Part shown: piece by piece, positions 2,487-47,752 of the stretch | Layout of the letters: every line of letters begins with the position of its first letter | Numbering within the stretch: position 1 is the first letter of the stretch | Source: Carcharhinus amblyrhynchos | Taxonomy: Eukaryota | NCBI GenBank assembly: GCA_965287045.1 | Contig: OZ336884.1 | Location: 51,708,001 to 51,772,000 of the forward strand | Reading direction: 5' to 3' | Length of the DNA stretch: 64,000 nucleotides | Program-made: the position numbers and the translations under genes | Notes under the pieces: generated by a model | Told to the model about the DNA's origin: nothing | Seen by the model: only the letters and a program-made list of their open reading frames with translations | The model's database searches: none

Positions 2487-2643
2487 ACGATGAACATCAT
2501 TCTGCTGTTGTACAGCAGGAACATCGCCACCAATAGGTCTTTGCCTTGTCAGTTCATCGTTCTTCAAATTCAACCATGCCAGTAAGTCCTGGAGAGAAAT
2601 GTGTAGTCGCTTCCACTGCTCGGCACTCGTCTCCAGACAGGCT
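2487..2643 (-). CDS. DMD: Dystrophin coding exon, orthologue of human DMD exon 57
   Basis: Reads (R)[52 protein letters not shown] versus recalled human SHLEASSDQWKRLHLSLQELLVWLQLKDDELSRQAPIGGDFPAVQKQNDVHR. Acceptor tttttaccgttttag|A, donor CGT|gtaagg. 157 nt; the AG+A split codon joins exon 56 in frame. Confidence 0.97.
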
Positions 2644-15171: not shown

Positions 15172-15344
15172 CTAATATTTAGCGATTTTTTCCTGAGCTC
15201 AGTCCAATGCAAGTTCATGTCATCAAGACGCCTCTGCAACAAAACCCCATCCTCTGCACCTTCCAGACCTTTGAGTATTTTCTGTCCATTCTCATCCAAG
15301 TTATGGTAAGTGTCAGTGTGAGCTTCAATTTCTGTCTGAAGATC
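15172..15344 (-). CDS. DMD: Dystrophin coding exon, orthologue of human DMD exon 56 (rod-domain spectrin repeat region)
   Basis: Reads DLQTEIEAHTDTYHNLDENGQKILKGLEGAEDGVLLQRRLDDMNLHWTELRKKSLNI(R), about 80% identical by eye to recalled human DLQGEIEAHTDVYHNLDENSQKILRSLEGSDDAVLLQRRLDNMNFKWSELRKKSLNIR. Acceptor tttttttccttcttcgacag|GAT, donor ATTAG|gtagga. 173 nt, phase 0 to 2, same size as human exon 56. Confidence 0.97.
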
Positions 15345-15534
15345 CTGTCGAAGAAGGAAAAAAAACACATTGCTTTTATATTTCTCGATTTGTCAAAAAT
15401 GGGCTTTCACGGTCAGAACAATCATTGAACTGTGCCTGACTTCACATTTTATTCAATTTAATGATAAATTGGAAATAAAATTGACAACAAAATAAAACAA
15501 AACAGAAAAAAAATGCATTCCTGACACCACTGAC

Positions 15535-15564
15535 CTTTACGTAATATGTTTTTCTTTGCGGCAT
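15535..15564 (-). CDS. DMD: Coding part of the Dp116 isoform-specific first exon (MPQRKTYYVK)
   Basis: ATG CCG CAA AGA AAA ACA TAT TAC GTA AAG|gtcagt. Phase-0 donor 190 nt upstream of the exon 56 acceptor. 7/10 identical to recalled human Dp116 N-terminus MLHRKTYHVK. A at -3 of the ATG. Confidence 0.88.
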
Positions 15565-16100
15565 TTTTAATCTAAACCTTGGAAGGATGCAAAGACTTTG
15601 TGGTGCCTGCATTGCGCCCAAGATAGTTTGCTTGAGAAAGCGCAGATCCTTGTCCACTTTCTGCTCAGTAAAGTGTGGCTGGATAAGAACCAGCCTTAAC
15701 ATTCAATATTGCATAACCAATCCAGAGGATACAATACCATCATTCAGGGCAGTGGCCTTTCAGCAACACAACAGTTGAATAGACCACTCATATAATTAGC
15801 TTTGTTTTTTATTGAAATAAAAAAGCATCACAGTTCTCAGTTCTCTTTAAATTTTAAAGGGTTCTGGCATGTGAACATTCCTCAAACAGATGCCACGCTC
15901 CCAATTTGCAAATAGTTATGCACATCACAGCATACTAACCCACCTACAGGCTCGATTGGGCCAACTGCACTATACTGAGTGAGCTTTTTGCTTTTCTGTA
16001 CATCGGGCAATTGTTTTCTTTTCATCCTCATGATCCTTCCTACCTGCATCTTCTCAAAGAAGGAAATATAAGGTGAGAGTATCTATGTAGGTAAACTCCG
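15565..16100 (-). promoter_or_regulatory. Putative Dp116 5'UTR and promoter region
   Basis: Inferred from position only: repeat-free sequence directly upstream of the Dp116-like exon. The TSS cannot be located from sequence. Confidence 0.4.
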
Positions 16101-16384
16101 ATACCCCAAATTGGCAGGACCGTCAACACTGGACAATTCTTAAGTGAGAGACAGTTCACTCATGAGACAAATCGTTGAAACATCTATTACTGAATCATTA
16201 ACATAACTAAAAACAACAAAACGTGACTGCTATATTGGCTACTGCAGACAAATATATGTTATATCTCAAAGTAAGATAGAAGATGCTGAAATATAAAGCA
16301 TATCCATCAGCAAATTCAACTATTGCTCCAAACACAATTCCTCAGATAATGAAGCAGTCTATGTCAATTTGCCGTAAGACATAG

Positions 16385-16570
16385 ACACTATCAAGGCTTG
16401 TACCGATAAATGGCAAGCAAATTAAAAACACACGGGTCCCAGACAAAAATCATCACCAAAAAGAAGTGTCAAAGCACTTTCCTTTGTCGTTCAATGGCAA
16501 TGCCATTGCTAAATCTTCCAACCTCAACATCCTGGTGGTCACCACTACCCAGAATTTAAATTGGAATAGA
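16385..16570 (+). mobile_element. CR1/L2-group LINE RT fragment (partner LINE of SINE family B)
   Basis: DKWQ.. and aacatcctggtggtcaccactacccagaatttaaattgga match the reverse complement of 21985-22170. Confidence 0.6.
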
Positions 16571-17304
16571 GGGAATGAGTAAAGTGTGAAATCACAACCA
16601 TCTTAGGACTCAGTTATCAGGGAGCCCAGCCGCAAAAGCATAGCGATTCAAGTGCACTGGTCCCTTGTGAAGGTGTGATTTTATGCATATGGTTGAGATG
16701 ATGGATAAGCAGAAGTCTATTACCAGCATTTGTAGCTTCCTACAAATGCAGGAAGCTTCTCTCAACCTGTACATGGAGATTCGTGAGTGAACAGACATTT
16801 TAAATGTTATAAACCCAAAATAGGAGCAGCAAAGATATTAATATTTTAGGATCCCAAGCTTTCAAAGGGATACTTGAAGACAATAGAGAACTAAGATGAA
16901 AGCAGAAAGAAAGGTATTTATGAAAATGAATTTTCAGCTACAGTTCATTGTTGGGGAGGCCAAGCCCTAGTGAAAGCCAATTCCTGTGTTTTGGGGTATA
17001 TGGAAAATCTGCAATTTTAATTGAAGCAACTCAGTCTTGGGTTAGGAGAATATCTGAACTGAGATACAGTTTGTTTTGGATCTCCCTTGGGAAAAAAAAT
17101 ACATCAGCGTGGATTAGCTCTGGGAAGTCATGGATTGTGCTTTTGTTTAAAGTGAAAGCAATTTCTCAGTTTGGGTAATATTTATTGGATTTTATGGTCA
17201 GCAATCTATAGATGTTGTTGCCAAAAAGACAGTTTTATTATGCACCTTTTATAAAGCACTCATTCCTGACCACAAACTCATATTAGTGACATTGCTGATG
17301 GCAT

Positions 17305-17465
17305 AGAATCACAGAATTCCTACTGTGCAGAAGGAGGCCATTCGACCCTTTGAGTCTGCACCGATTCTCCAACAGCGCATCCCACCCAGGCCCTATACCC
17401 ATAACCCCACATATTTTCCCCTCTAATTCTCTCAACCCATACATTTTGGGATAATAAGGGGTAAT
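17305..17465 (-). mobile_element. HE1 SINE 3' part (tail type 1)
   Basis: gggcctgggtgggatgc..ggtgcagactc..ggcctccttctgcacagtaggaattctgtgattcta, as in the other HE1 copies. Confidence 0.7.
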
Positions 17466-17467
17466 AT

Positions 17468-18495
17468 ATAAGAACATAAGAAATAGGAGCAGGAGTAGGC
17501 CATCTAGCTCTTCGAGCCTGCCCCGCCATTCAATAAGATCATGGCTGATCTGTCGTGGCTCAGTTCCACTTTCCCGCCCTCTCCCCATAACCCTTAATCC
17601 CCTCTCTTATCAAAAACCCATCAACCCGCGTCTTAAAAATATTTAGCGAGGCATACTCCACCACTTCAACGGGCAGAGAATTCCAGAGATTCACCACCCT
17701 TTGAGTGAAGAAGTTCCTCCTCAACTCCGTTCTAAACCGCCCCCCCTTTATCTTGAGGCTGTGCCCTCTAGTCCTACTGTCCTTTCTGAGCGGGAAGAGT
17801 CTCTCCATCTCTATCCTATCCATCCCATTCATCATCTTATACGTCTCAATGAGATCTCCCCTCATTCTTCTAAACTCTAACGAGTACAAGCCTAGTTTAT
17901 TCAGCCTCTCCTCATAGTTCAACCCCCTCAACTCCGGCATCAGCCTAGTAAACCTCCTCTGCACTCCCTCCAAGGCCAAAATATCCTTGTGTAAGTGCGG
18001 CGACCAAAACTGCACACAGTACTCCAGCTGCGGCCTCACCAGTGCCCTATACAGCTGCAGCAAGACCTCCCTACTTTTATATTCAATCCCCCTCGCTATG
18101 AAGGCCAGCATCCCATTCGCCTTCCTGACCACCTGCTGCACCTGCAGGCTGGGTTTTTGCGACTCATGCACAAGGACCCCGAGGTCCCTCTGCACCGTTG
18201 CCTGCTGCAGTTTTTCACCATGTCAGTAATAGTCCTTCCTACCATTATTCCTACCAAAGTGGACAACCTCACACTTGCCAACATTAAATTCCATTTGCCA
18301 GTTCCTGGCCCATTCGCCCAGCCTATCTAGATCCTTCTGCAGACTCTCCATACCCTCCGCGCAATTTGCCACCAATCTTGGTGTCATCAGCAAATTTCGA
18401 CACCATACACTTGGTTCCCTCCTCCAGATCATCTATATAAATGGTAAATAGCTGAGGCCCCAGCACGGACCCCTGGGGCACTCCACTAGTCACCA
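17468..18495 (-). mobile_element. Young CR1 LINE, subfamily A, 5'-truncated
   Basis: RT C-terminal ORF 17560-18195 (QRDLGV..LEYCVQFWSP..RGDLIE..TRGHSLK..FFTQRVV). (TTCTTATG)n tail; possible TSD AATAT. Confidence 0.95.
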
Positions 18496-20095
18496 AATAT
18501 CCCTCAACATCTAATTTGTCAAACCTCCTGATAAATGTTTATATATAAATTAGATCACCTCTCATTCTTCTAAATCTAAGGAATATAGGAAATGGTTCAG
18601 AAAAAAGCACCCTTCCCATCTCCCCCAAGTGCCCCCTTCCCAGCCCCCCCCGACCCCCCACCCCAATGCTTCCTCATTGCGCTCATTCCCATGTTTCATC
18701 CTTCAAAGCACTAAAACAGTTGTGGAGGATCTGAGTCAGCAGCCTTTAAAAGCACTCTACTGCAGCGATCGGCAATCTAGATTTGTGAGTGGGCCACATA
18801 AGGGACCCTCCTTCATCTCATGTGCTGCAAGACTGAAATTGGGTTTGTTGACTAGCCACGACCTGATGAATAAGATTGAATATGCACTGAGTATTATAGA
18901 GTGAGTTATAAGAAATGTTTAATCATTCATACATTAGTAGGACTCCAAAATGTTAAAAACAAAATAAATATTTATGCTTTGGAAGCAGAGAGAGTGCAAA
19001 ATTCTCACAGTCAATGTTATGTGCAAACAGCACGTACCTCACTTCAGTCACCCTTGCTTTATGTGTGTACACTTCAGTCATACTGGGAGTGAAAAGACAC
19101 TATGTGGCTGGAAATTAGCAGAATGTGACAACCCTGCGCGTGAACGAATGTCAATAAAATATCTCTTGAGCTGCACTTGGAACCTAGATGCGGCCCCTAG
19201 GCTGCATACTGTCCAGCACTGGCTAACAGCCTCAAAACTGGTGGTAATTCAGAGACAAACCCAGGTCTCTGTGTGCATCTTCCTGGAATATCAACTCATG
19301 TATATATGTTACACATGTGTATGCTTCTTACATCAATGCATATTATTTAAATCAATCCACAAGGAGGAAGATGGAACAAATTCAACCCAAGGCAGCTTAA
19401 TTATGAGTCAGAGTGGTAGTTTATATGGTAAGTTACCAGTAGAAATATAAGTCATATATATATATACCTGTATATTTGAAATGCATTATTTCTTATCAGG
19501 CTGAAGCAACCCTTTACAACCTGCATACATTTACGGATGATAACTGGAACAAGTTAACTTTTCTTTCAAAACATTGTATGTACTTTTACTCTGCCATGAA
19601 GTAAATTATTATAGCTGTTCATCTTTTTGATACATTTCCTATTCTATTCTTATATAGAGCATTGAGCAATGAACGTTTGTTTGCACCAAAGATATATCAC
19701 TAATTGATTGTTAAGCCCAAAAGTTGCAGAGCACTCATAAATGGTTGTTATAAATATATAACACTTAAAAATGATTGCCAGCAATATTATTATAGCCACA
19801 ACATAACTTGTATCAAATTCTTCTTTGTTTTAAGAGAGCTAACCTCTTCATTAAAATGCCAGAGTGGAATTAGATACATTGCGTAAATATGAAATTCTGA
19901 TTTTTGAATTCCTTTCATGGGGCATGGGAATCACTGGCAAGGTCAGCATTTGTTGCCCATTCCTCACTGTCCTTAAGAAAACCATGGTCAGCCATCCCCT
20001 ACAACTGCTGCAATCCATCTGCTGAAGACATACAATGCTGTTAAGAAGAGAGTTCCAGGATTTTGAACCAACAACAGTGGAAGAATGGCAATGTA

Positions 20096-21167
20096 GGGAA
20101 TGACTCTCCCATTGCGACCCACGTACTTTTTGGCGGGTGTGATCTCGAGAATCGTGTGTTGGCCATTTCGTGGGATGTGCACGTGTTCCCGACGCATACG
20201 CATCTCCCAGAGCCAGGGAACAGTCACAGTCGGAACCGTGCTGGAAACAGGTGAGAACAGCCATAAGTGATTTAAATCTGTATTTAATGCATTTTAAATG
20301 TATTTTACATGTGATTATCCAGGGTGGGCCCAATAGCACCTCCCACCTTGCCAGGAGTACTTTATTCTGGCGAGGTTTAGAATAATTCCCCATGTTCAGG
20401 GAACTAGTGAGGGACCCCACTGGAGCTAAGGGGGGCAATCAGGGCCTCCCAGGGGGTTGGATAGCAAGGGATGGTGCCCCCAGGCATGGGCACCCTGATA
20501 GTGCCAGTCTGTGCTCCTTGGAGCAGCTGAAGGGGCAGTGCCCATGCCTAGAGGGCAGTTTGGCACTGCCCACCAGACATCGGCAGTGCCAAGGGAGCAG
20601 TGTACTGTTGGCAGGGTTTATTTGGGTAGGGCCTAGAGGCAACTGGTGGTGTTGGGGGTCCCGCTGCCACTCTGCATTGGGATCAATCTCAGCTAGAGGA
20701 GGTCAGCGATCGAAGCAGGTTGAGGGGCTGGGTCTGCCGCGGGGGGAGATTTGCCTCCCGTCGAGGAGGGGATCTGACCTGGGGAGGGGTGATCTGCCAA
20801 GGTGAGCGGGGTGTGGGGATTGCCATTGCTGGGTATGGTGGGGCTGGACATCGGGGCACTCTGGGACGGGAGAGGTTGGGGCTGGCTTGGGAATTGTGAT
20901 CGGCCTATGGGGGGTGCTGGAGCAGCAGCACTGTGGGGATCCTGGACTGGTCAGTGATTGAGGAACATGACAGATCAGTGCCACTGCACATGTGCAGAGT
21001 TCCAGAGCTGTCAGACTCTAACGCGAATAGGCCCTGGGGTTTTTAATGATATTCATTGTGACCTCTGCATTGCACAGAGTGGATTCAAGTTTGAAGTTGC
21101 ACTGAAAAAACAGTGGTGATCTAGGACAGTTTTCCCACCAATTCAGCACTTTTGGGAGAATCGCCCC
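20096..21167. mobile_element. Non-autonomous DNA transposon (MITE-like, possibly PIF/Harbinger)
   Basis: Imperfect TIRs gggaatgactctccca / tgggagaatcgcccc; GC-rich interior; cleanly splits the host LINE. Confidence 0.55.
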
Positions 21168-21234
21168 ATTGTTTCAAAGCAGGACGGGTCTGTGGCTTTT
21201 AGGGGAACTTGCAGGTGACAATGTCCCAAGTGTC

Positions 21235-21685
21235 TTTTTTTGCATTCATTTGTGGGACATGGGTGTCGCTAGCTGGCCAGCATTTATTGCCCATCCCTAG
21301 TTGCCCTTGAGAAGCAGGTGGTGAGCTGCCTTCTTGGAACACTGATACAACTGAGTGGCTTGCCAGACTATTTCAGAGGGCAGTTGAAAGTCAACCTTAT
21401 TGCAATGGTTCTGGAGTCACATGTAGGCCACACCAGGTAAGGACGGCAGATTTACTTACCTAAAGGACATTAGTGAATCAAATGGGTTTTCCACAATTGG
21501 CTTTTGCCAATTATGGTCATTATTATGGTCAATTTATGGTCATCAGTAGATTCTTAATGTCAGATGTATTTTATTAAATTCAAATTCTACCATTGCTGTA
21601 GTGGGATTCAAATCTGGGTCCCAGAATATTATCTGAGCTTCTGGATTAACAGGCTAACAACAATGCCACTAGGCCATCACCTCCC
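21235..21685 (-). mobile_element. tRNA-derived SINE, family B, near full length
   Basis: Head ggtgatggcctagtggcattg..agatttgaatccc; body gtcctttaggtaagtaaatctgccgtcc; tail gggcaactagggatgggcaataaatgctggcc plus A-rich end. Confidence 0.8.
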
Positions 21686-22963
21686 TTAAAGCCCTGGTTG
21701 TTCTTGGTGGTAGAGATTCAGGTTTCTGCAGCTGAATGAGTGTTGGTGTGTCTGTGGTGGAGGGGTTAAATTTTTAAGGTGTTAGACAGGGTGCCAATCA
21801 AGTGGGTTGCTTTGTTCTGGATGTTTTTGAGCTTCTTGACTGCACCCATACAAGCAAGTGGGGAGTATTACACCACACTCCTGATTGTTGCCTTGTAGAT
21901 GTTGGATTTATTTTGGGAAGTCAGAAGGAGAATTTCTCATTGCAGAATTCATAGCTTCTAACTTGCGCTTGAAGTTATTTATATAGCTGTTCCAGTTTAG
22001 TTTCTGGTCAATGTTAACTCCAGAATGTTGATGGTGAGAAATTCAGAGATAGTAATGCAATTGATTGTCAAAGGGAAATTATTAGATTCTCTCTTGCTGG
22101 AGATGGTCAAAGCCTGATACTTGTGTGTTTGATTATTATTTGCTGCTTATCAGTCTGAGTCTGAATATTGTCCATATGGTCATCAATAGCATCACTCACA
22201 ATAATTTCCAGGCTGAGTAATATCCTCTTAACAATAAAACAAGCTTTTATTTTGAAGGGAACATCCCAGTTATACAACTGATTTCTTGAAACTAGGATCC
22301 CTCATTTGCTTGTGAATACACAGGGCAGAAAAAAAGAACAAGTCCCAGTTTCACACAGTTAAATATTCATAGGCACATTTCCATATACGTTGGCCAGTAT
22401 CCTGCAAGTATAATAATTCTGACAATATTCTCCTCTGGTTCTTGTATTAAACGCATTTGAATTGAATAAATGCCACCACGGCAAGAAAACTGATTTCTCT
22501 GATCCTGTCTTATCATGTGAAACAATAATGAAATGGACTGTTTTTGAAATTGACTGTTGGAACTACAACTACCATGGATATTGATAAAATAAAATCTTTT
22601 GTAATCTTCGATTAGACCCTGAATCATTTCACAGCATAATTTATTCAAGAAGGCTTAATTTTCACTTTGGGCACGATGCCTTGAAGCTTGTGCAGTGATA
22701 TGCAATACAAAGCAATAATGCTGTATGGGCTTCTCAAGACAATCCAAGAAAGAATTTGCAGCTTTGCTTTTGCTTTGATCTGTCGGTTAATGCTATATTT
22801 GCTCAGGGCAGGCTTTGTAACTTAACGCATTGTATACATTCTAAAATGCAGTGTAACCATGCATTGAAACATCAAGCTATCACCTGGATGTTGGGTTCCA
22901 AGTGCAGAGCTAAACACTTTTTTTTAAAAACAGCTATTACTATGCTGCAAACCCCACAGAATA

Positions 22964-23278
22964 GGGGTGCAACAGTGGCACAATGCTTGGCACTGCTGCC
23001 TCACAGCACCAGGGACCTGGGTTCAATTCTAGCCTCGGGTCACTGTCTATGTGGGATTTGCTCATTCTCCCTAAGTCTGTATGGGTTTCCTCCAGGTGCT
23101 CCAGTTTCCTCCTACAATCCAAAGGCTGATTGGCCATGCTAAATTGTCCCTTACTGTCAGGGGGATTAGCAGGATAATATATGGTGTTAAGGGGATAGGG
23201 CCTGGGTGGGATTGTTGTCGTTGTAGGCTTGATGGGTTGTATGGCCTCTTTCTGCATTGTCGGGATCCTATGGTTCTA
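22964..23278 (+). mobile_element. HE1 V-SINE (tail type 1, CR1/HER1-like)
   Basis: ggtgcaacagtggcacaatg..gcactgctgcctcacagc..ggttcaattc, V domain, tail ggcctctttctgcattgt..cctatggttcta. Confidence 0.85.
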
Positions 23279-23344
23279 GAATACATTTCTATTTTTAGCA
23301 AGCCTTACGTTGTCCATCAATATTATATGTTGCTGAAAATAAAC

Positions 23345-24717
23345 TGCTACGTTAGTGTACCTTTAAGAGATTTTTTTATAAATCATGTTTTCTGCAGTTG
23401 TAAGCAGGCCTTTTTGGCTTCAATTGTTTTCTCATTATTGGCACCGGTGTCTCTGGAGGAGTCTTTTTATTGTTGCTTAAATGGAGGTTTGTTTATTTTT
23501 ACTGGGATGTTTATGACTTTGCATTGTTAGAAGAAAAACTGGTTGGCAGGTCAGGTGACAGGAACTTTTTCATTTTTCTGTTTGGCTGCAGTTTGGGTTT
23601 GGTTTTCAGATGGGACATTAAGCTGGAAAGAAGTATCTCTCTCTCCTTGGTTTTAGAAATTCTGTTGGCCATCTGAAACTGTACTGTGTGCAGTTTTGGG
23701 CGCTGCACCTGCGCAAAGATATTTTGGCCTTGGAGGGAGTGCAGAGGAGGTTTACTAGGCTGATACCAGAGTTGAGGGGGTTGAGCTATGAGGAGAGGCT
23801 GAATAAACTAGGCTTGTACTCGTTAGAGTTTAGAAGAATGAGGGGAGATCTCATTGAGATGTATAAGATGATGAATGGGATGGATAGGATAGAGGTGGAG
23901 AGACTCTTCCCGCTCAAAAAAGACAGTAGGACTAGGGGGCACAGCCTCAAGATAAAGGGGGGGCGGTTTAGAACGGAGTTGAGGAGGAACTTCTTCACTC
24001 AAAGGGTGGTGAATCTCTGGAATTCTCTGCCCGTTGAAGTGGTGGAGGCTGCCTCACTAAATATTTTTAAGACGCGGGTTGATGGGTTTTTGATAAGAGA
24101 GGGGATTAAGGGTTATGGGGAGAGGGCGGGAAAGTGGAACTGAGCCACGACAGATCAGCCATGATCTTATTGAATGGCGGGGCAGGCTTGAAGGGCTAGA
24201 TGGCCTACTCCTGCTCCTATTTCTTATGTTCTTATGTTCTTGTGAAAGCAAGGTCTTACCTTTCTGGAGGATGGAATCTGCTGTTGTTGGTTTGCTGAGA
24301 GTTCCTGGTGTTTTGGGAAGCTGTTCTGATTCTATCCAGAGAACTGTAGGCTTCATCCAAAGCAGTCAACTACAGTATCATGTGAGCATTAGTCTATGCC
24401 GTATTAAAGCTGTTTGAAGGGTCTTGTTTATGGGATTGGTTTGATTGGGTCATCTCCTATATTTAAGTATTATACATTATCATGGTTGTTTTGGTGTTGT
24501 CTGTAAGTGATAGAAGTTATTGCTAATATTCCTACTATACATGTTGACTATATTCTTAAATAAACTTTGTTTGATAAAAGCTCTCGTGGGTCATTTGAAT
24601 CATACCTGAAGTGAAACCTGTCTTGCTTATCCTAGCCAAATTCAAGATGCAAAACATATGATCCAGGTGAGCTCCGTAAAACACTTTTTATGGAGTTTTT
24701 GACCTGAACCATATAAG
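23345..24717 (+). mobile_element. Solo LTR interrupted by a CR1
   Basis: Homologous along its length to the reverse complement of 47753-48819. Starts TG; AATAAA near 24559. Confidence 0.65.
23681..24241 (+). mobile_element. Young CR1 subfamily A 3' fragment
   Basis: ORF 23688-24143; (TTCTTATG)n tail; TGAAA duplicated at 23674-23678 and 24243-24247. Confidence 0.95.
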
Positions 24718-27700
24718 AGATATTTTGTTGAAGCTTTTCATATTCAGTGACTGGCTGCCATTGTTCTATGTTCTCCATTGTTGTCCTCATGGCAACAGTT
24801 CACCCAGAGTCAGCTTGCCAATCAATCAGCACATCTTTCTCCTGTAATATAAATTGTTGTGATCGTTTGAAATTTGGTCTTGCATTTGTCCTAATGCAAG
24901 ACTAAAAGCTCTTCTCAGCAACATTCAAGTAAATTGCAAGTCTTGAGCATATATTCTAGGCTGACTCTGCAGTGCAATGACGGAACATTGCTGAGTTAGA
25001 GGTGCTGGAATCCATTTTTTCAAGTGAGTTTTTCAGACAAGACTCAAGCTCTGCAGGCAAACAATGAGATTTCTCTTTTTGTTCTCCACTGACATTCACC
25101 ACAATCTGACTACTGAGCAATTTCACATAATTGCCAGATGAACTTTGCAGCAAATATTCTAACAGTCCCAACAGAATATTTGAACATTTGAACTTAGAAA
25201 CACTGATATTTGGTGCACCTCCTTCATCTATAACAATATATGTTTCCACAATTGACAATCTTAAAAACATCTGTCCAGCTCATCTTCAAAATAACTAACT
25301 GACATACCAGTAACTGTGTTAGATGGATCAAACCTTCAAACAGTTGACTTTCATACAATAAACAATTACTTTGAAATAGGAGAAATGACAAAAATCTCAT
25401 CCTGGCACAAGCTTGCTTATCTTCCAGCTCAAATAGGAAATATACCCCAAAAAGTCATCTATCCTTTCTATTTTCAGATGCTAATGGACTGCTTTGTCTT
25501 TATGCCATTGTCCAGCTATATTTAAAAAAAGTAGAAATTTCTTGTCATGGCTGCATGAACAGACTAAGTCTTCCATTAAAATAGCACAGAGAGGAATTTA
25601 GTGCCAGAGCACTGAGGATCCAGAAAACAAAACAACAAGATCAATGGCAATTCTTCTTCTTATAAATCTTTAATACACATAAGCCATCATTGCACTATCA
25701 CAATGCAAAGTGGATATTATCCAAAAACACTGTAAATTAATCTATGACTAATTAGGATCACAAAGACCAAGTATAGATTTTAATACCAAACACCTCTGCA
25801 AGGAAGTTCTCAAGTCAATTCACAAACCTGATTATTAAGCAGATCTGATCCTTAAGAAAGAAACAATTATTAGCTGTTTGATCAGTAGCATGCCCTGTTG
25901 CATCTGCCTGACAATAGCTCAAGATTAGTCCCCAGTTATTAATTCACAGCTGTACTTAAATTGACAGTAATGTGTACGTCAGTACCCAGTGACCATGGTA
26001 CAATTAAGCTATGTTTGGAGTTTGTAAGCTCCAGAGTAAATAAGAGAGAGTCGGTAATTCATGAAAGTACAAAATCTGCTTCAACAAGGTGACTTCAACC
26101 TTGTTGCTGTAGATAATGTCTGACAGTCTGATGGTAGTATATGGCACTCGTATTTTAAATCAGCGCTGCCTGCAGAAACACATTTGGTAACATTAATCTG
26201 CTCTGAACAACAAAAATGCCACAAAGTAAAATTAAGCAGAAGACTCAGCTTTAGGAAACAACAGGCCTAACACAGGGGATCATGCAAACACTGAGGACAA
26301 TAGAGTTTGCCTCCTTACCATGACTGTTAATCACTACAAAGATACTGCACCATTAATATCCAAACACAGAACTGATGAATCTTTGCTAATTCAAATTTGC
26401 CATGCTTCATAGAAAGACAAACATAACTTGATTGCAAGCTCTTGAATCTAACATGGAGCAGAATAAAATCATGGACCATTTATTTCATAATTGGTATGTG
26501 CCAATCTGGAGTCATGTATCCTAATAAATGACATGTTCCATCTGTTAAACAAGCACTGGGAAAGATTCAAGCTCCACACATGCTGCTAATGTAGCCTCTC
26601 AGATAACAGTTACCAAAAATTAAAAATTCAGACCTAATGAATAGGACCAAATTTGGAACATACAGCACAACAACAATTAAGCACAGCTATTGTAAATTCT
26701 TATTTATAATACTCCTATTTTATTTATCTATTTTATAGATGCATCTATTTTATAGATTCTTCCAAGATATTTAGTGGACTATTGAAATTTTAACTCATAA
26801 GCATCCAGTGGACCACCTGTGTTTTTATCACACAGAGACAATAAATGCTCTGGCACAAACTGCGATTACCGATATGCTGTGCCACTGAGTGATAACATGA
26901 GGGTTTCTGCCTGAAATTCTTGACAAGTCAAGTTCCTAATTTTAGTCATACTACTACGTGGAGAATCCTCGAACATAGAGAAATTGGCAGGAGGTTCCCA
27001 ACTAGATGAAGCCGATATAGCTCCTAGCAGCCAATTCAGAAGGATCAAAGTCTTTATCGGTGAGTAACCTTTCACTATCTACAATAAGTTCCATCTTGTA
27101 AATATAGGTGGCAATGGAAGAGTCAAATAGGCTATTATTGTATTTAACAGGAATTACCATAAAGGGGAAATTAAAACAAACTGTAGCCGAAAATTAATGC
27201 AAAATATTTCACTTGATCAATGAATTTCAACTCATACCGCTACAACTATAAAATAAGTTAGAAAATCAGTTTGGTAACTTTTCTAATAACACACAAAATT
27301 TTTAGAGAAATATGGGGATATGGGAGCAGAATGGAAAACAATACTGGATGAAGCACATTGGAATATAAAATCTGTCATAGATCAGATAGGCCAAATGGCC
27401 TTCTTCCATTTTATGGATTCTACATATCTTAGATCAGTTTCTGAAATACTGAGTTATACTTGTGCTTTCCTTTATCGCTCCTGGGCATTATTGTATTAAC
27501 CTCTAAATCAAGAGAGTTGAGATAATTGGTTCTTTGATTTGGCTGGGGGAGGGGGGTGGTCTGGGAGAGGGCAGGTGGGGAGAATGAGAGAGAATGTGAT
27601 TGTAGGTATATGTAGTGAAAAGAGAGGCCCCATCAGTAATGTTTGAACTGACTATTATCCAACTGCTACTTGAAGGAAGAACTATCACAGCACTTTGCTT

Positions 27701-29399
27701 TATTATCTTTCAGACATCTCTGTCTATGCTAAATTCCTTTGCATGAAATGACCTCTAATTTTCTCAAGCACTTTCATACGTGGCATTTTATCAAATGCTT
27801 TTCTAAGCCCAGATAAACATTATTTATCACATTCCTCCAAGGGATTCTGGTCCTGAAATTACGTGAAGGTTCTAATTGGATTCCACCATAACTTTGGCAG
27901 GATATTTCTCATTCTGTAATCACTCCTTAACCCCAACTCCCTTCTCCTGCCTGCCAAGCCTCCACCGCATGCTGTGATCTATTCTGATTGCCAGAATTCA
28001 TCCCTGGTGGCACCTAGCTGGCACACCAATCTGGCCGTCTCACATGAATTTTGAAAAGTCATGGTTGGATATTCCACTGTTCTGTCGCTGAGCCCCTTCC
28101 GGATCATTAGGTGTTGTATGTTTGTATAAATCCTTTTGCATACTGCAGCTTGCCATATTCATGTGACCTTTGATGTCATTATATGCAAATAAAGATTTCG
28201 TGCAGTAGCCACTTTACACACCACGTGGAACGCCAGAATAATTAAAACTTTGGTCTGCAAACCGTGACAGGATATCACAGCTGCCCAAGTCATTGTGGTT
28301 TTGACTTATCCAATATCTGCACTGAGATTAAGGGAGACTTCAGGAGGAATTGCCAGTCACAATGGCAAAATTATAAGGTTGTTACAGAGTTGAACAAAAA
28401 ATCTGAACCAATAAGCGCAGCAATCCTGTAACCAGTGATGGGGGAAGGAGTGCCACAAGCTATGTTACATTCTCGACCTTGGTGAAGAGCAGAAAAAGCC
28501 AAAATTGTGCATGCTGGAGACCTTGAGGACTCATTTTGGAACGACCACTAATGTATTTTATGAATTCTATGTGCTTAACACTTGGAGCTCTTGAAAAGAG
28601 GAAGAATAGTGATCAGTGTGCAACTGCACTGAGACATCTTGTTGAGCCTTGAGAGTTTAGGCAGCTAAAGGATGATATGATTATCTGAGGAACAAGAGAT
28701 CCTGCTGTAAGAGCATGTCTGCTCAGGAGAGAAACCTAGGGTTAGATTTACGCCATAGAGGCGAGAAGCTCAGGTTAGGAAATTTCCTGACTTGGCACAT
28801 GTGTCTCCTTTAAAGGGGAACCCACCCACCATATTTTCATTCTGGGGAGATGGAGGCAGGATGGAATTAGGCTTGACATCTCTAGAAGCAGTCACAGATG
28901 TGACATACTTAGAAAGACTGCCTTGGTTCCCTGGCAGTACAGAGTTATATTAAAGGCTGTTGGGCATTCTAACCTTTACTCCTCACATTGCCTCATACTG
29001 TTGCCCACCTACTCTCCCTGCCAACTCCATATTCCAAGCCATCAACATGCCTGTTTGCCACCTTTATGCTTCCAGATGGAGGGCACTAAGCGCCATCATT
29101 TCAGCTGAAACAAGTCAAAATCTTGGACTCAATACACTTTAAGCAGCAGAAGAGATTTGCTGTGTTTTGCATAAGACCAAGCTATTGACAGCTGAGCAGG
29201 TTCTGATAGACAAGTATCCTGTTAAGATCAAGCAAACTATATGAAATGCAACTCTTGAATTGCAAAAGGAAGCTGTGATGAAATGATGGCTTAAAACCAT
29301 CAAGTCCACAGCTGTTGCTGTGAGAGAGAATCAGGCATACAAATGGCTTCCCAAGATGGCATCTTGTACAGTTGGCTTTGATAGATAGAGAAACATTAC

Positions 29400-32300
29400 T
29401 TAAAGGGTGAAGGTGGATAGGAAATGGAAAACATTGAAAGAGTGCAAGGGTGAACTGCAACAATTGTTTATTTCTGTTTGGTGCAAAAGTAGAATGGGAA
29501 AGGTGGCCAAACCATGGCTTAAAGGGAAATTAGGGATTGAATTAAATCCAAGGAGAGGTATACAAATTGGCCAGTAAAAAATAATAGACCTGTGGATTGG
29601 GAGCAGCTTAGAATTAGGCAAAGGAGGACCAACGTTATTGACCAAGGGGAAAAATGAGTGTGAGAGTAAGATTATGGGAACCGTGAAAACTGACTTTAAA
29701 AGTTTCTATAGGTATGTGAAGAAAAAACAATTGGTGAAGACAAATGTAGGTCCCTTAGTCAGTAACAAGGGAATTTGAAATGGTGAACAAAGATGGTAAT
29801 AAGCTAAGTTCTGTCTTCACAAAGGAGGACACAAATAACATATCAGAAATGTTGGGGAACACAAGGTTTAATGAGATGAGGAAACAGTATTAATAGAGAA
29901 ATGGTGTTGGGAAAATTGATCTGAAAAAAATTGATCTAAAAAAGTTTCATCCCATTTGGTTAGGACTTGACTTTTCTGATGTGCATTGCCAGATCCAGAC
30001 CTAATACAGAGATATTTTCCAACAGACCCAAAGGAGTTCTTTACAAGAAGTTCAAATGCATTTGTAACCATGTGCTTTCAAGTAATCTCAATGGGCTGGG
30101 ATTGATTGAAGACCAATATATCCCTAGGACCTGATAATCTATATCCCAGACTACTTAAGGAAACAGCCCTAGAAACAGTGGATGCATTGGTGGTCATCTT
30201 CCAAGATTCTATAAGTTCTTGAGGATTGGAGGGTAGCTAATGTAACCCTATCATTTAAAAAGGGAGGTTGAGAGGAACCAAGGAATTATAGACCAGTCAG
30301 CCTGATGTCAGCTGTGGGGAAAATGCTCGCACCAATTTAAAAGGCATAATAGCAGAGCATTTGAAAAACAGCAGGAGGATTAATCAGCATGGATTTATGC
30401 TTGACAGTGAATCATGCTTTGACAAATCTACTGGAATTCTACGAGGATGCAACTAGTGGTTATGAGGAGGAGCCAATGAATGTGGTTTATTTGGACTTTC
30501 AGAAGGTATTCAAAAAGGTCTCACAGAGATCAGCACATAAAATTAAAGTGCATGAGATTGTGGGTAGTGTATTCTTGCAGATTGTTTTGAAAAGTGGGAA
30601 TAAACGGGTCTTTTTCCCCAGTGGCAGACAGTGACTAGTGAGGTACCAAAGGGATCAGTGCTAGGACCCCAGCTATTCACATAAGAACATAAGAAATAGG
30701 AGCAGGAGTAGGCCATCTAGCCCTTCGAGCCTGCCCCGCCATTCAATAAGATCATGACTGATCTGAAGTGGCTCAGTTCCACTTTCCTGCCTTCTCCCGA
30801 TAACCCTTAATCCCCTTGCCTACCAAAAATCTATCTACCCGTGTCTTAAATATATTTAGCGAGGTAGCCTCCACCACTTCAACGGGCAGAGAATTCCAGA
30901 GATTCACCATCCTTTGAGTGAAGAAGTTCCTCCTCAACTCCGTTCTAAACTGCCCCCCCTTTATCTTGAGGCTGTGCCCTCTAGTCCTGCTGTCCTTTCT
31001 AAGTGGGAAGAACCTCTCAACCTCTACCCTATCCATCCCCTTCATCATCTTATACGTCTCTATAAGATCCCCCCTCATCCTTCTAAGCTCCAACGAGTAC
31101 AAGCCCAGTCTATTCAGCTTCTCTTCATAGCTCAACCCCCTCAACTCCGGTACCAGCCTAGTGAACCTCCTCTGCACTTCCTCCAAGGCCAAAATATCCT
31201 TGCGCAAGTGCGGCGACCAAAACTGCACACAGTACTCCAGCTGCGGCCTCACCAGTGCCCTGTACAGTTGCAGCAAGACCTCCCTACTTTTATATTCAAT
31301 CCCCCTCGCTATGAAGGCCAGCATCCCGTTCGCCTTCCTGATCACCTGCTGCACCTGTAGGCAGGGTTTTTGCGACTCATGCACAAGGACCTCCAGGTCC
31401 CTCTGCACCGTAGCATGCTGCAGCTTTTCGCCCTTTAAATAGTAGTCCCTCCTACTATTATTCCTGCCAAAGTGGATAACCTCATACTTGCCAACATTGT
31501 ACTCCACCTGCCAGGTCTTCACCTACTCGCTTAGCCTATCTAGATCCCTCTGCAGACTTTCTACACCCTCCGCACAATTTGCTTTTCCACTTATCTTTGT
31601 GTCATCAGCAAATTTTGACACCCTACACTCAGCCCCCTCCTCCAGATCATCTATATAAATGGTAAATAGCTGAGGCCCCAGCACCGATCCCTGGGGCACT
31701 CTATTAGTCACCAACTGCCAATCTGAATAGCACCCATTGACACCTACTCTCTGCCTCCTATTAGACAGCCAATCCTCTATCCACGCTAACACCTTACCCC
31801 CAACTCCATGCCCCCTAACCTTCTGTAACAACCTTTTGTGCGGCACCTTATCAAACGCCTTCTGAAAATCGAGAAACACCACATCCACTGGTTCCCCCCT
31901 GTCCACCGCAATGTATATTAATGATTTAGGTGAGGGAACTAAATGTAATATCTCCAAATGAAACAAAGCTGGGTAGGAGGGAGAACTGTGAGGAAGAGAT
32001 GTGTCAGTATGATTTGGACAAGTTGAATGATCAGGCAAATGCAGGACAGATGCAATATAATGTGGATGAATGTGAGTTATCCATTTTGGTAGCAAAAACT
32101 GGAAAGCAGATTGTCTGAAAGGTTACAAATTGAGAGAGGGGAATGTGCAATGTCCTTGTATTACCCAGACACTGACAGTAAGCATGCAGGTGCAGCAGGC
32201 AAGGTAGAAGGACAATGGTACGTTGGCCTTCATCGTGAGAGGATTCACGTTTAGGAGCAGGGAAGTCTTGCTGCAGTTATCCAAGGATTTGGTGAGGCCA

Positions 32301-32850
32301 CACCTGGAATAGTGTGTACAGTTTTGCTCTCCTTATTTGAGAAAGGTTGTTCTTGCTATGGAGGGAGTGCAGTGAAGATTTACCAGAATGATTCCTGGGA
32401 AGGTGGGATTGATGCGTGAGGAGAGATTGAATTGGTTAGGATTATATTCACTGGAGTTCAGAAAAATGAGGTGGGTTTTAATGGAAGCTGGTAACATTCT
32501 CACAGGATCACACAGGGTGGATGAAGGGAGAATGTTCCTGATGGCAATGAAGTCCAGAACCAGGGGTCATAGCCTGTGGATACAGGTTTAGGACTGGGAT
32601 GAGAAATTTCTTCACCCAGAGACTGGTGGAATTCTTTACCATAAAAAGCAGTTGAAACCAAAATATAGTATTTTTTCATGGTGTTAGATATAGCTCTTGG
32701 GGCTAAAGGGATCAAAGGATATGAGGCGGGGGCGGGGGGGGGGGACAGGGGAGGAAGTGGGGATAGGTAACTGTGTTGGATGATCAGCCATAATCATAAT
32801 GAATTGTGAAACAGGCTCAAAGGCCCTCTCCTGCTTCTATTCTCTATGTT
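29400..32850 (+). mobile_element. Older CR1 ORF2 remnant interrupted by a young CR1
   Basis: Decayed motifs [51 protein letters not shown]|IYINDL, RPHLE, SRTRGHSL, plus 3'UTR. Confidence 0.85.
30681..31909 (-). mobile_element. Young CR1 subfamily A, 1.2 kb, antisense inside the older CR1
   Basis: One reading frame from [22 protein letters not shown] through FADD to GKWN*, broken only by a TAG at 31523-31525; (TTCTTATG)n tail. Confidence 0.95.
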
Positions 32851-33139
32851 GGTCTGGCACTCATGCAATATACTCAATGACTCCTTACTTCACCATTGAT
32901 CACCAGTTTTAAATTTTGTCAAAATCTTTCTGAAATATATAGTAAAAATTACTCTCTCTTTGTCATTATTCCAGTAATGCAGTCCAAATCACCAGCAGAT
33001 TAGTTGAGCGTGACATGCCCATTTTTCTTTCCTCTGTGCAGTACACTTGTCTGTATTAAATTTCATCTGTCATTATTCTGCCCACTTACATATTTTATCC
33101 AGCTCATATTGTAATTTTTCAGCTGCCTCGTTTGAGTTA

Positions 33140-33462
33140 TTTTTATTCTTTTATGGGCTGTGAACACCGCTGGCAGGGCCAGCATTTATTATCCATCCCT
33201 AATTGCCCTTGAATTGAGTGTTCGGCCATTTCAGAGGGAACCAAAGAGCCAGCCATGTTTCTGTGGATACCCAGTACAGGTAAGGATGGCAGATTTCTTT
33301 CCCTTAAGGAAATTAATGGACTAGATGCATTTTTGTAATAATTGACAGTAGACTTGCAATTTTTACTGAAATTCAAATTTCACCGTATGCCATGGTGGGA
33401 TTTGATTTGAATCCAGGTCCCAAGGTCTCCAGATTACTGGTCCATTGTGTCACCACCTCTCC
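33140..33462 (-). mobile_element. tRNA-derived SINE, family B
   Basis: Matches 21235-21685. Confidence 0.75.
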
Positions 33463-35329
33463 TGAGTCCACAAGCTTGTCCAATTTGACCAGTCTGCTTT
33501 GGGTTTCTGAGTCTGTCACTGTATAAGTAAGAGGTCCAAAAATCATCCCTAGGGCATTCCATTCAGTGCTTCTCCTCACCTTGTCATAATTAGTAAAATG
33601 AATACATATTTTCCTCTCCCCTTCAAATAATTTCCAAGATTTACCCTGAACAAAGTGCGCATACATGGAAAAGATTAGTTCATGTTGCTTTGGCACAAAG
33701 GTGAAGTGAAACACTAAACCGTTCAGAAATTTGTTCAGTGCCAAGGTTGATTGACAACTTCCAGTTCATTAGTACTGTGAACCATTTGTTAAGCCTCTCA
33801 ATCTAGAATTCATGGCTCCCATGTTGACAAGTAGTGTGCAAGGGAATGCATGGAGAAAACTATGACGGTGACCTTGAGACAATTCATATCCCAGTGCACG
33901 AGGAACAATCTTGTCTCTCCCTGCCCACAAGGAAACCCGAGAAATAAACAAAGCATAATACACTGTGGCCCTTATGTGCCCATCCCAGGATTCTGCTCCC
34001 TGCAGGATTTAGCAAACACAGGGTCTCTCTCTCCTTCCCACCTTCTCACTCGGGCCTTAGTTTAAAATTGCAGATTGATTGTTGATGGTAACAAGGAATC
34101 ATATTCTTTGTCCTGCTCATCTGCTCACAAGAAAAGTATAGGAACACGGCAGCAGGAAGCAGGATCAGAGTGGAGAAGTGAGTCCTGATATTTAAATGCA
34201 CCTTACCCCTTAGCCTGGTTTCTGCCGGATGGGGGCAATTGAAATCAGGCCAATCGGTTACAAATTGAGTTGAATCTTAGAAAGGCAGTTAGTTCTTCCA
34301 GCAAGACACTGCCTATTTAGATGTCTGGAGGACAGAATTAACATGGTAAAATCAACATTCTAACTGGGTACACCATTATTATTGATTCCACTGTGATTTG
34401 ATTTACAATCAGGCCATAAGTCTGAGGCACAATTTATTCTTCAAATAGACTTTCCTATTACAATGCTCAGATAGTGTTAAGAGAGGTCTCAAAGGAGAAA
34501 ATAAATGAAAACACCTGCTCTTCAGCACTGGCTAAACAATGTCACATCACACTACAGCATCTACTCTTAACAACATTGATTAAAAAGAGACAGCTTTACA
34601 CGGGTACATGATCTGCTCGTGCGAGCGCATCCCAATGAAAAACTCATATCAAGTGCAGCACCACAATATATAAGGATTCTACCTGAATATATTATTGACA
34701 TTTAAAACATTTGGAGTGACTATGTGCCACTAGCTATTTCTATTCCTCAACATTGCCTGAGACACCAGACTCATTCCTTCCACCCCTAATTTTTTCAATT
34801 TTATCTGTTACTATGTGCCATAAGATTATAATGGAGGACACAAGATACTATGGTGGGGGAATATATTTCACAATAATATCAAGGAACTACATCTTAAATT
34901 TAATATTTCAATTCAATATTTTGTTTCCATTGAAAGATAATACTTTAACCAAAGGGTCAAAACTTTAACTTGTTCACCTGAACAGGAAGTAAATTCATGA
35001 TCATGAATATTCGATATGACAGCACATACTGGAATTTAATTGTGGATTATGGCATTAATATATAAATACTGAGCACACTGGTGCATGATTACTTTGTTTT
35101 TTAACGAAGGGTTAACTTAATCTGCTGGTAAATGTGCTATGTGCCATACCAGTTACAAATTAAAATACTAGCGTAATATACAAATTTAGCAAGTGGCCAT
35201 TTGCTAATATTGTGAGCTATAACTCCTTGGCTTCTACTGTTTATATAAATCCTCAAAAATATACCATAAATATTTCTTTGGATCAAAATATGCAGAGTTA
35301 ATCTGGCACTACGTGGTGCTGTTTGCAAA

Positions 35330-36060
35330 CATTTATGACCAGGGAGCTCCAATTATTGATCTCTGCTTGTGACAATGGGGCAGAGGATAGGACTTCAATG
35401 TTCCCTGACCTGTGAGACAGAAATTAAAAAACAGCTGTGGTTCCTGCATGTTTCATTTTGTCTGACATCATTAGTAGTGCACATGTAGATACAAAATAAG
35501 GATATGATTGGGCTGGTCTGTGATAATCCTTGCTGTTAATTAACCTTGCAAAATTCAGCCACAACCAATCGAATGATGATTGAGGCTACCATGCGATCAG
35601 AGCCTCAATCTGAGTTCTTGTCTTCAAGAAAGGAACATCAAGAGGACAAAAGCAACAAAAGAAAAAAATTGACATAACAACAGTTTAGCTCATAGTAAAA
35701 CAGAATTACATTGAAAGGAAGCTTTAAATATTTTGTTCCAAGTATTCAAAATAATCCAACAACAGTGCCACCTCAATTTTAGACGTAAATTATTTTTCTT
35801 CCCCCTCCGCTTGGAAATGCTGACGTAAATTTCTTGCCATTATCCAGAACCTCATCCAAGTGATTATGTTGTGTGAGCAAACTAATGGACCATAGAGCCC
35901 AGTACATTCAAGTTTAATCCTGTCCCCTTCAAACAGTGACCAGTGGTGCTATGTAGTGTCCCCAGCTACATGTGCTCAACTGAGAATGACTAATTCAGCA
36001 TACAGACCTAGGTCAGCATGGCTCAGTTATGTGCTAGCTTCCCCAACTGAGCCAGCCATT
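35330..36060. mobile_element. Two decayed family C SINE-like copies, tail to tail
   Basis: Weak block similarity to 8350-8730 at 35330-35670 (+) and 35790-36060 (-). Confidence 0.35.
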
Positions 36061-38004
36061 TCTCATAGGGTGTTCCCTCACTCCCAAGAAAAATCACATT
36101 ATTTGAGATAAGATTTCAGTAGTTTTTTTTTTAAACAAATCTTTGAATAACATTCAGAAATCATCAAGGTGTTACCACTGCACCAAAAAGTCATGCAACC
36201 TAGCTGACTATGAAGGCATGACCAGACAAAATTAGATCCTACTTCCCTCATGGGAACAAGCCAAAAATTACCATAATCAAACCACAGCAGACAGTTTAAT
36301 TGTGAGATGTGATTGCATACCTGTCAACATGAACAAAGTTGGGTCTTATCTCCAATAATTTTGTTTTTACAACAACACAAATATAATGGTCAAAATAGCA
36401 AACATTTTAGTCAGATACTGGGAGGCTTTATGTATCCACTTTTATTAAAATTAAGACTTGCTTGGCTTAATTTATACTCAACAGTTACAATCATCAGCTG
36501 CATGTGTTGGCCCTTACCCATGTTTGTTTATATAACAGATAGAACTGAGTGTGGGATGGCAGATGTGCTGCACCTAAATTGATCTCAACATTAAAACCAT
36601 TCCTTGATTATATTGCTCTCTACCAGGAATATTTTAGCTTCTGAATGTGGAATCAATAATATTCATGCAGCATAACACTTACTCATTTCATAGATGCAGT
36701 CTTTCTGGCAAAAACAGAGGCAAGTACCAAACTAAATGGCTAGTTTACACTAGGCAGTTTCTCAGCATGTTTACAACTGCAGTGAAAGCGTGCACACATT
36801 AAGCTCATGCTGAATTCTTGGTCCCAATTCATTAGAATTGCAGCACAACAACAGGTTAAGTACCAAACATCGGCTAACAGTTGATATCAAATCATTTATT
36901 GTGAAACCATGAAGCTGTTTTCTCTAGCTCACAAAGCTAATCTTACACCTATTGAAAGTCGCTCGTAAACTTAAGTTTGAGTGCAGTATAATTGACTTTA
37001 CAGTCCAGTTAAAATGTACTCACTGTACTGATATTGTATTTGTTCCAATCCCAGGAATTCCAGCAAAGGTCTAGGTCCATCCTTCTTTATCTTCTATTAC
37101 TGTTTTCAGCCTATTCAGAGCTTACCCTAATATTTGTTCCTGTGCCTTTCTCTATAAAAAAAAACCTCGTTCTAGCTTGCCATTGATTTAGAAAAGATTC
37201 CCTTCAGCTTCATGCACACATACTCACAAAAACACAGGTTGTAACAGTGCTAGTATACAAAGCTTGCTTTCATTCAGCAATCCACCCAAGGTCTTTCTGC
37301 CTATTTCCACGGCAATCCATTTCCCTCCAGGATAAAGTAGAACAGCTACTGCTGCCATTAGTTCCGCTCACATCCCACTGCTTCCAATTAGCACCAATTT
37401 CCCCTTACAATACAGGCAGCCAGAAGGGCACGGCAGAAACAAAAAGGCAGCAGTCTTAAAAGCTGGGAGCAAACACAAGAAAGGTTTTCTTCCTTCCACC
37501 TGCTGAGTTATTAAAGCGGCTGCAGCAAATACAGTGTCACTCTCCTGGGCTTTGCTTTTCCTGATATGGGGTTAAACAGTATTTTTATGTAGAGTGTTAA
37601 TTAGCCTTATATACATTTCTGCCAGTTTCTGCAGTTCTTGCCAGATCCTCTGGTCTCATGCTCCTCAAGGGAAGCTGTGTGTAAAAATAAAAAATCATAC
37701 CCTCTGCAATATCCTATTTTACTTTGTTCTTTTATACAGGAAGACGCTGATAAATCTTTTACTTATTATGGCTTTTGAACATGTTTTTCCTGTATCAAGC
37801 TGCTGCATCACCCTCATCACCCCCACCATCACCCACCCCCCGACCTTCTCCCACACCACCACTGCCTTCAATGAGCTCGTGGCCATACTGCTGTGTAATC
37901 ACTAAGAGGTGCACTTAAACAACTTGGGGTGATTGCCCAGACCATTCTTAATCACGCCATTGTGGAGAAATGCCTCCATTAGTTTATGCAAAAATCACCT
38001 CCCA

Positions 38005-38360
38005 CAGTTCAGACTGGCACATTCCAAAGTCCAAGATTATGTGCTGAGGGATGCACCAAAGCTTGAAGCAGCTGTCACAGAGGTTCTGTGGGAAAGGCCA
38101 TTGTTGAAGGCCCTCCTGCCACAACATACAGAAGGGTTAGAAACCATGTAAAATCCTTGGGCTGTGTGTGCCAAAGGATGTTTGACATGAAATGTAAATG
38201 TACACTGAAATTATACATTTGCACAAATGTAATGATGAGTGTGGTGAGGCATCTCATTTACAGTTTTGAAAGAAACTGATCTGTGCTGCATTTTCAGTAA
38301 TGTCAAATTTGAAGTGCAATTGTGCTTAATATTACAAACTTTATTATAAAGGGGAAAAAT
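38005..38360 (+). mobile_element. Tx1/L1-clade ORF2 C-terminus and 3'UTR
   Basis: FRLAHSKVQDYVLRDAPKLEAAV..LW, followed by an AT-rich UTR. Confidence 0.6.
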
Positions 38361-39054
38361 CACCTAGGACAGTGCAGATGAGGTCAGCAACTTAATATGT
38401 GGGAAGCTGTAAGCCTCTACCCAAAGCCTACTGATGCAGTTCTGTTAGTGCATGAGTGTGTAAGTGCAGTGTGTCTAATTGTTGTGTACAGGCATAAAGT
38501 AGGTCAAAATGGCAAAGAATGGGTGCCAATGTCACTGGAATGGGATAGTAACAACAGCACTCACAGTCTGTGGTTGATTTTTGAAAGACAATGTATTCTG
38601 CTCTCAGAGTTACAAAGCCAATGTGCAGAGTGGACAGAGCAAACTTTCATCCATCACCTTGCTTTCTCCAAAAACCAGTTCAATTCAGATTGAATCCAAT
38701 TCACGGTCTCTACAAAAGAAACAAGGTGGAGCCAAGCTGACAGGAAGAGGCATACCAGATCTTGGGCTTACTCTGCAATTGATCTCATATGCGTAATTTT
38801 CTCACCATGGATTTAAGCAGATGAAGGATGTATTGGGAATGAAACAATTAAAGGAAAGCGTGACGACAGTAATACAGGAACACCTTAAAAAGACTGCAGA
38901 GGAAATATAGAAAGTAAGAGCGGGAGTAGGCCACTCTGCCCTTTGAGCCTGCCCTGTCATTCATTATGTGGCGATGCTGGCGTTGGACTGGGGTAAACGC
39001 AGTAAGAAGTCTCACAACACCAGGTTAAAGTCCAACAAGTTTATTTGATAGTAA

Positions 39055-39096: not shown

Positions 39097-39192
39097 GGAA
39101 AGTTCTGATCAGAGAAGGGCATATAAAGGAACACACAGTTTACAGAATACTGATTAGAATGCGAGTGTTTACTTCTTTGACCAGGACCTTCC

Positions 39193-47751: not shown

Positions 47752-47752
47752 A

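Follow-up and report, generated by a model that had tools for sequence, protein, structure and literature searches.

We propose that intron 55 of the dystrophin gene in the shark Carcharhinus amblyrhynchos holds two internal first exons: S1, an orthologue of the Dp116 first exon (15612-15535), and a more distal exon, W, both predicted to splice to one acceptor, that of exon 56. We consider this explanation, taken whole, to be highly probable. It was developed from a 64,000-nucleotide stretch of genomic DNA (the window), in which all of the dystrophin features listed in Table 1 lie on the minus strand.

The identity of the host gene is evidenced by exon 56, which matches the dystrophins of whale shark and catshark at 53 of 57 residues, that of chimaera at 48, and that of beaver at 44, vs 28 of 57 for a teleost utrophin. 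The two shark values against the utrophin value indicate that the gene is dystrophin. Exon numbers 55 to 57 were assigned from PMC5664101 together with gene order. Exon 55 lies outside the window: its end is 14.3 kb past the window's edge and separated from exon 56 by 62,989 nt.

Table 1. Features of the dystrophin intron-55 region in the window and of the utrophin-like paralogue on another contig (C12)
Feature	Positions	Strand	Remarks
Dystrophin exon 57, 157 nt	2487..2643	(-)	Seen in contig loose ends
Dystrophin exon 56, 173 nt	15172..15344	(-)	Second half of a spectrin repeat, Pfam PF00435 positions 45-95 of 105
Isoform-specific intron, S1 to exon 56, 190 nt	15345..15534	(-)	3' end with pyrimidine tract and AG
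S1, 10-codon core MPQRKTYYVK	15535..15564	(-)	Phase-0 donor AAG/GTCAGT
S1, 16-codon in-frame extension, Dp118-type start	15565..15612	(-)	ATG at 15612, G at -3
Open frame up to weak-context ATG 15702	15613..15702	(-)	Likely 5' UTR or promoter
Intron, exon W to exon 56, 21,679 nt	15345..37023	(-)	Contig joint falls precisely on GT and AG
Exon W, 19 codons, MDLDLCWNSWDWNKYNIST	37024..37080	(-)	Donor ACA/GTGAGT, phase 0
Dystrophin intron 55, part in the window	15345..64000	(-)	62,989 nt in total
G-utrophin first exon	C12, local L013 113-12	(-)	About 69.5 kb above utrophin exon 56
Second utrophin intron-55 exon, 17 codons	C12, local L006 4184-4134	(-)	3.6 kb above exon 56

The original prediction described S1 as an ATG followed by MPQRKTYYVK, a phase-0 donor, and a 190-nt intron to exon 56, and each of these elements is exact on the minus strand. 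The ATG at 15564 lies in the context aaaATGc, the 30 nt from it to 15535 encode the decapeptide, and the joint to exon 56 (15344-15172) keeps the reading frame; if the intron (15534-15345) is retained, a stop is met. We ranked every open-frame GT site of the intron over its full 62,989 nt, assembled from the window and two adjoining stretches, by the similarity of the peptide ahead of it to known Dp116 N-termini. The S1 donor ranked first of 1942 sites with each of five Dp116 N-termini, scoring 35 vs 22 for the runner-up with the amniote peptide, 22 vs 21 with the frog peptide, and 21 vs 19 with the medaka peptide. The S1 match is not a chance one.

An exon in this position could also serve full-length dystrophin as an internal cassette exon, reached from exon 55 via an upstream AG, and six in-frame open AG sites do lie above S1, with a pyrimidine fraction of at most 0.7 vs 0.85 and 0.65 at true acceptors. 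Nevertheless, exon 55 is joined straight to exon 56, and exon 56 to exon 57, in contigs of all four sequencing runs that were mapped and compared by eye (X1, X2, X7, and X11, from 22 listed runs, of which 17 are presumed to be RNA). S1 is moreover N-terminal in curated-type models and internal in three or four only (including P0011, P0016, and P0095, within longer predictions), while mammalian and zebrafish S1 are described as cloned first exons in the available text of PMC5664101 and PMC1790709. Given this evidence, the cassette reading is very improbable. No contig from the same four runs covers S1 or its 190-nt joint; the tissues of these runs are unrecorded, and the result weighs neither way.

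Homologues show that S1 is the dystrophin first exon of Dp116 type, here in a cartilaginous fish. Its core is identical at 7 of 10 residues to the human peptide given in PMC5664101, and, as in Dp116, it lies in intron 55 just above exon 56 and in phase 0. The closest counterpart is whale shark XP_048458782.1 (isoform X2), in which a 26-residue start is joined to exon 56, with identities to the reef shark sequence of 23 of 26 residues in the start and 53 of 57 in exon 56; it comes from another species and is an automatic model (as RefSeq XP entries are) rather than a published description. Peptide, intron-55 place, frame, and whale shark model thus agree with the original prediction of a Dp116-type alternative first exon, whereas the expectation that gene predictors would miss such an exon fails, since this RefSeq model contains S1. 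S1 here extends a known isoform to a lineage where it was expected, and whale shark annotation already contains it. It differs from human S1 in lying 190 nt rather than 755 bp from exon 56 (PMC5664101); given the human spacing, a distance of 190 nt is not striking.

Among 319 compared proteins that have an exon-56-like stretch, 30 carry S1 with an MQ extension and 25 carry the 10-mer alone, by a pattern outside which two 12-residue sturgeon S1 forms fall. Carriers of the MQ extension include mammals, birds, turtles, alligator, tuatara, coelacanth, and whale shark. Separately, the sturgeon forms, two residues longer than the 10-mer, and a bat form, two residues shorter (P0100, P0114, and P0149), suggest alternative donors 6 nt apart; GT sites in phase 0 near the S1 donor of the window occur at 15541 and 15526.

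The conserved coding part of S1 reaches further than the 30-nt coding exon originally predicted from ATG 15564. The reading frame above this ATG is unbroken and contains two more in-frame ATGs, at 15612 and 15702. The 26-mer read from ATG 15612 is the one that matches the whale shark start, and its alignment score was reached by 0 of 5000 shuffles. Below ATG 15612, and in frame, is the conserved extension pattern MQ...C..PR..LK, and the extension is identical at 9 of 14 residues to that of a beaver protein (P0063), the shark form being two whole codons longer. Because vertebrate similarity extends to 15612, the coding part of S1 would be at least 78 nt, not 30. Since the length difference between shark and tetrapods is two whole codons, coding constraint is favored in the extension.

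This extension corresponds to the start called Dp118, which the available text of PMC5664101 presents as a predicted upstream start of Dp116, unproven as a protein and bearing an SPRF kinase motif. The term was found in one paper only in a search of the full-text literature, and transgenic Dp116 studies, according to the same source, employed the short form (PMC5664101). The shark extension shares with Dp118 the in-frame upstream MQ start, a cysteine, and PR-x-x-LK, and differs from it in having 16 codons rather than 14, one cysteine rather than two, and leucine in place of the SPRF serine, a replacement found in both sharks (this one and the whale shark). The human S1 exon measures 91 bp, 72 of them coding, which leaves about 19 nt of UTR.

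S1 could be a real first exon in which only ATG 15564 is used, with upstream conservation reflecting constraint on promoter or 5' UTR DNA. Several observations fit this reading: ATG 15564 carries A at -3, the 25 proteins with the 10-mer alone begin at the 10-residue Dp116 start, and Dp118 has never been demonstrated as a protein, as far as the available text of PMC5664101 states. Because frog, sturgeon, medaka, and gecko models begin at the second ATG, the extension may also lack universality, and the start codons of S1 may differ, as noted in the available part of PMC1790709. However, whale shark, coelacanth, and amniotes all retain the upstream ATG with its open frame, and the length change preserves that frame, as coding constraint predicts. 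Exclusive use of ATG 15564 therefore strikes us as somewhat unlikely, and translation most likely starts at ATG 15612, giving the 26-residue form.

The remaining ATG, at 15702, is an unlikely S1 start, as its context is weak and it shows no conservation. The stretch from 15613 to 15702 is probably non-coding, either 5' UTR or promoter, and the similarity of its frame to bird upstream models and to G-utrophin was not above that of shuffles. A protein search with the 56-aa S1 frame as the query returned zero candidates. A Pfam Ependymin match to this frame (E 0.002, below the cut-off) was taken as chance.

A Dp116-type first exon in a cartilaginous fish makes the isoform older than the split between sharks and bony fishes. 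This part of the original prediction was borne out; the novelty of that age was not, having been published already. The accessible text of PMC1790709 (2007) reports a zebrafish S1 transcript confirmed by RT-PCR and conservation of S1 to zebrafish, speaks in a figure legend of conservation "across all gnathostomes," and infers that the promoter predates the duplications that gave rise to dystrophin, utrophin, and DRP2. With these statements in print since 2007, neither the age of the isoform nor a link to myelin is new or shown by the present data. In a recent preprint (bioRxiv 10.1101/2024.12.06.627177), the available part calls the Dp116 promoter vertebrate-restricted.

The proposal that this isoform and myelinating Schwann cells originated together in jawed vertebrates draws on the role of Dp116 as the Schwann-cell isoform in mammals (PMC5664101, in its available text) and on the RKTY-type peptide, which occurred only in gnathostome proteins among those compared. 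However, sections of PMC1790709 infer an intron-55 promoter predating the duplications, cite isoforms that arise in this intron in sea urchin and fly, and place G-utrophin expression in brain and ganglion. Mouse Dp116, as described in part of PMC9896479, occurs in neurons, astrocytes, oligodendrocyte-lineage cells, and photoreceptors and is thus not Schwann-restricted. The sole hagfish protein compared has exon 55 upstream of exon 56. A joint origin with myelinating Schwann cells is, in our judgment, improbable. A search of the full-text literature outside subscription papers found no paper with a chondrichthyan S1 sequence, and the supplementary first-exon alignments of PMC1790709 may hold one.

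A second candidate first exon, W, lies further up the same intron. Its ATG has A at -3 and G at +4, with an in-frame TAA just upstream. In run X2, presumed to be RNA, a 97-nt contig with a depth of 3.9 combines 30 letters from exon 56 with a loose end of 67 letters, which belongs to neither exon 55 nor S1; the 30 of these 67 letters that were compared match 37024-37053 exactly and once. The exon-56 part is one letter below our 31-letter bridging rule, and the W joint occurs in one of the four runs. The stretch holding exon W occurs once in the genome. None of the AG sites listed for the 276 nt that precede the W donor provides an open in-frame acceptor, so W is not a cassette exon.

Automatic tetrapod models provide counterparts of exon W. 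The 17-residue start of dystrophin X8 from the salamander Pleurodeles waltl (XP_069060860.1, P0091) aligns to W with a score reached by 0 of 20,000 shuffles, and turtle models from Trachemys (X13, XP_034610632.1) and Mauremys mutica (X19, XP_044858247.1) have 13-residue starts with W-like ends. With all three tetrapod ends, the donor at 37024 is rank 1 of the 2034 to 2270 open-frame GT sites in the intron, scoring 28 vs 20, 28 vs 22, and, for turtle P0308, 23 vs 22 for the runner-up. Conversely, these ends (P0091, P0308, and P0318) take the first three places among 139 distinct pre-exon-56 ends when compared with W. Shark and salamander W have in common the frame, the Met, an acidic start, the Trp spacing, and a terminal Thr. 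The turtle N-terminus matches window DNA only via a frameshift (the +1 frame of the window reads GIGT where the turtle reads MIGT), so the 5' half of W is probably frameshifted in turtles. Like W, these salamander and turtle exons are N-terminal and joined to exon 56; they differ in length (17 and 13 residues vs 19), the turtle 5' half is probably in another frame, and they are unnamed automatic isoforms that were compared by protein only.

W-like ends are rare. They occur in only 3 of the 319 compared proteins, none of them a bird or mammal protein among the cluster members listed. A search with residues 1-52 of P0091 gave 52 matches and no further W-type start, and an exon 56 search of 50%-identity representatives gave 134 matches with no W-type start.

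This rarity, the single low-depth contig with the W joint, and a turtle start that reads another frame of the same DNA would fit a W whose DNA (promoter and donor) is constrained rather than its peptide, or low-level cryptic splicing with a partly chance likeness to the tetrapod starts. Nevertheless, the shark and salamander exons agree in all of the features named above, exon W has a strong start context and a consensus donor, and the models in salamander and turtles are separate. We give this alternative a smaller but appreciable share of the probability and think it likely that exon W is real and homologous to the tetrapod exons. W is then probably an undescribed second intron-55 isoform, apart from automatic models; no description of a second coding exon in dystrophin intron 55 was found in the full-text literature outside subscription papers. 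We rejected the idea that W was copied from S1 or from one of the two utrophin intron-55 exons, because 1126, 3225, and 2645 of 5000 shuffles, respectively, reached the alignment scores.

Other elements lie near exon W. A donor-like G/GTAAG at 37125-37121 (-), 45 nt above the W ATG, could be an alternative non-coding donor, and TATATAA at 37613 (-), about 530 nt above the ATG, could be a promoter element. In humans, non-coding transcripts arise about 55 kb above the Dp116 promoter, and the sense ones are unspliced, according to the part of PMC3448672 available.

Utrophin offers a paralogous comparison. The genome contains a utrophin-like paralogue on another contig (C12), whose exon 56 is identical to utrophin at 42 of 57 residues. 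Its G-utrophin exon is identical to the teleost G-utrophin start at 29 of 32 residues, and its second, 17-codon intron-55 exon matches the teleost utrophin models P0284, P0285, and P0296. G-utrophin (Up113), which is listed with Up109 among the short utrophins in the available text of PMC10789850 and is expressed in brain and ganglion (PMC1790709, in part), resembles S1 in layout, being a coding first exon in intron 55 that is also present in this genome; it differs in belonging to another gene, in its distance of about 69.5 kb from exon 56, and in showing no similarity to S1 above that of shuffles. Exon W, too, scored within shuffles against the G-utrophin exon, and the residual similarity of S1 to G-utrophin claimed in PMC1790709 (available part) did not rise above shuffles here. 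That S1 might itself be the G-utrophin exon is ruled out, because that exon sits on C12. A plus-strand match to the second utrophin exon at 51933-51968 of the window (E 1e-4) was also rejected, as it is on the wrong strand, has no ATG, and lies inside a dispersed repeat. This repeat (51890-52000) has at least 40 genome matches at 77-87% identity and is the source of the false utrophin peptide match.

Anatomy, frames, homology, and the one W-to-56 contig anchor a working model that proposes promoters, start-codon use, tissue, and tail functions for the two exons. An internal promoter would start the S1 transcript, and S1 would splice in phase 0 across 190 nt to exon 56. Translation would mostly begin at ATG 15612 and give the 26-residue form, while ATG 15564, with its 10-residue form, would be used through leaky scanning or on transcripts with a shorter 5' end. 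The product, of about 970-990 aa, would have neither the actin-binding domain nor most of the rod and would retain the last spectrin repeats as well as the WW, EF-hand, ZZ, and C-terminal regions by which the dystroglycan complex is anchored. A profile search of the whale shark isoform detected WW, EF-hand, and ZZ domains, and the accessible part of PMC5664101 describes Dp116 as assembling the dystroglycan complex without direct actin anchoring.

Because exon 56 begins in the middle of a spectrin repeat, S1 or W stands in for the repeat's first half. In an AlphaFold model of the whale shark isoform, residues 1-22 have pLDDT below 50 and no helix, and a helix begins at residue 25, in a model whose mean pLDDT is only 52. 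The S1 tail carries a net charge of +6 and a single cysteine; for the W tail, the net charge is -2, with four aromatic residues. The S1 tail would be short, basic, and probably unstructured, most plausibly a membrane-targeting or modification handle. We infer a basic targeting tail that is possibly lipid-modified, and modification at such cysteines was suggested in the available text of PMC1790709. Exon W would use the same acceptor and encode the same body behind an unrelated acidic, aromatic tail, and its main job is most likely to supply a start codon for a second promoter, active in other cells or at other stages.

Further observations concern the compared dystrophins and the surroundings of S1. 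Chimaera, catshark, reedfish, and paddlefish dystrophins (P0003, P0005, P0121, P0039, P0106, and P0107) have a Met 279 residues before exon 56, and bird and mammal models of the corresponding length start at this Met. In P0005 and P0121, residue 1 is the sole other Met ahead of it. We read this Met as the possible Dp140 start; if so, it bears on whether Dp140 predates tetrapods, which the available part of PMC1790709 leaves as a question. At 16325-16391 of the window, several unrelated contigs from three of the four runs match at lower identity, probably because of a small repeat. A 220-codon open frame at 17560-18222 (-), 2 kb above S1, resembles what we take to be the end of a LINE reverse transcriptase.

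By keeping a Dp118-type start in frame, the shark provides an outgroup argument on which ATG starts Dp116. Exon W, if read correctly, indicates one more internal promoter in dystrophin, with an age close to that of jawed vertebrates, and utrophin in this genome has the same two-exon intron-55 layout. We lean, by a modest degree, toward a jawed-vertebrate ancestor with two dystrophin intron-55 promoters, one for a basic S1 in which the Dp118 ATG is ancestral and one for an acidic, Trp-rich W that would have persisted in cartilaginous fish and salamanders and undergone a frameshift in turtles. If this is true, another isoform joins the textbook list of dystrophins, and a remnant of W in human intron 55 could be relevant to deletions with a breakpoint in that intron.
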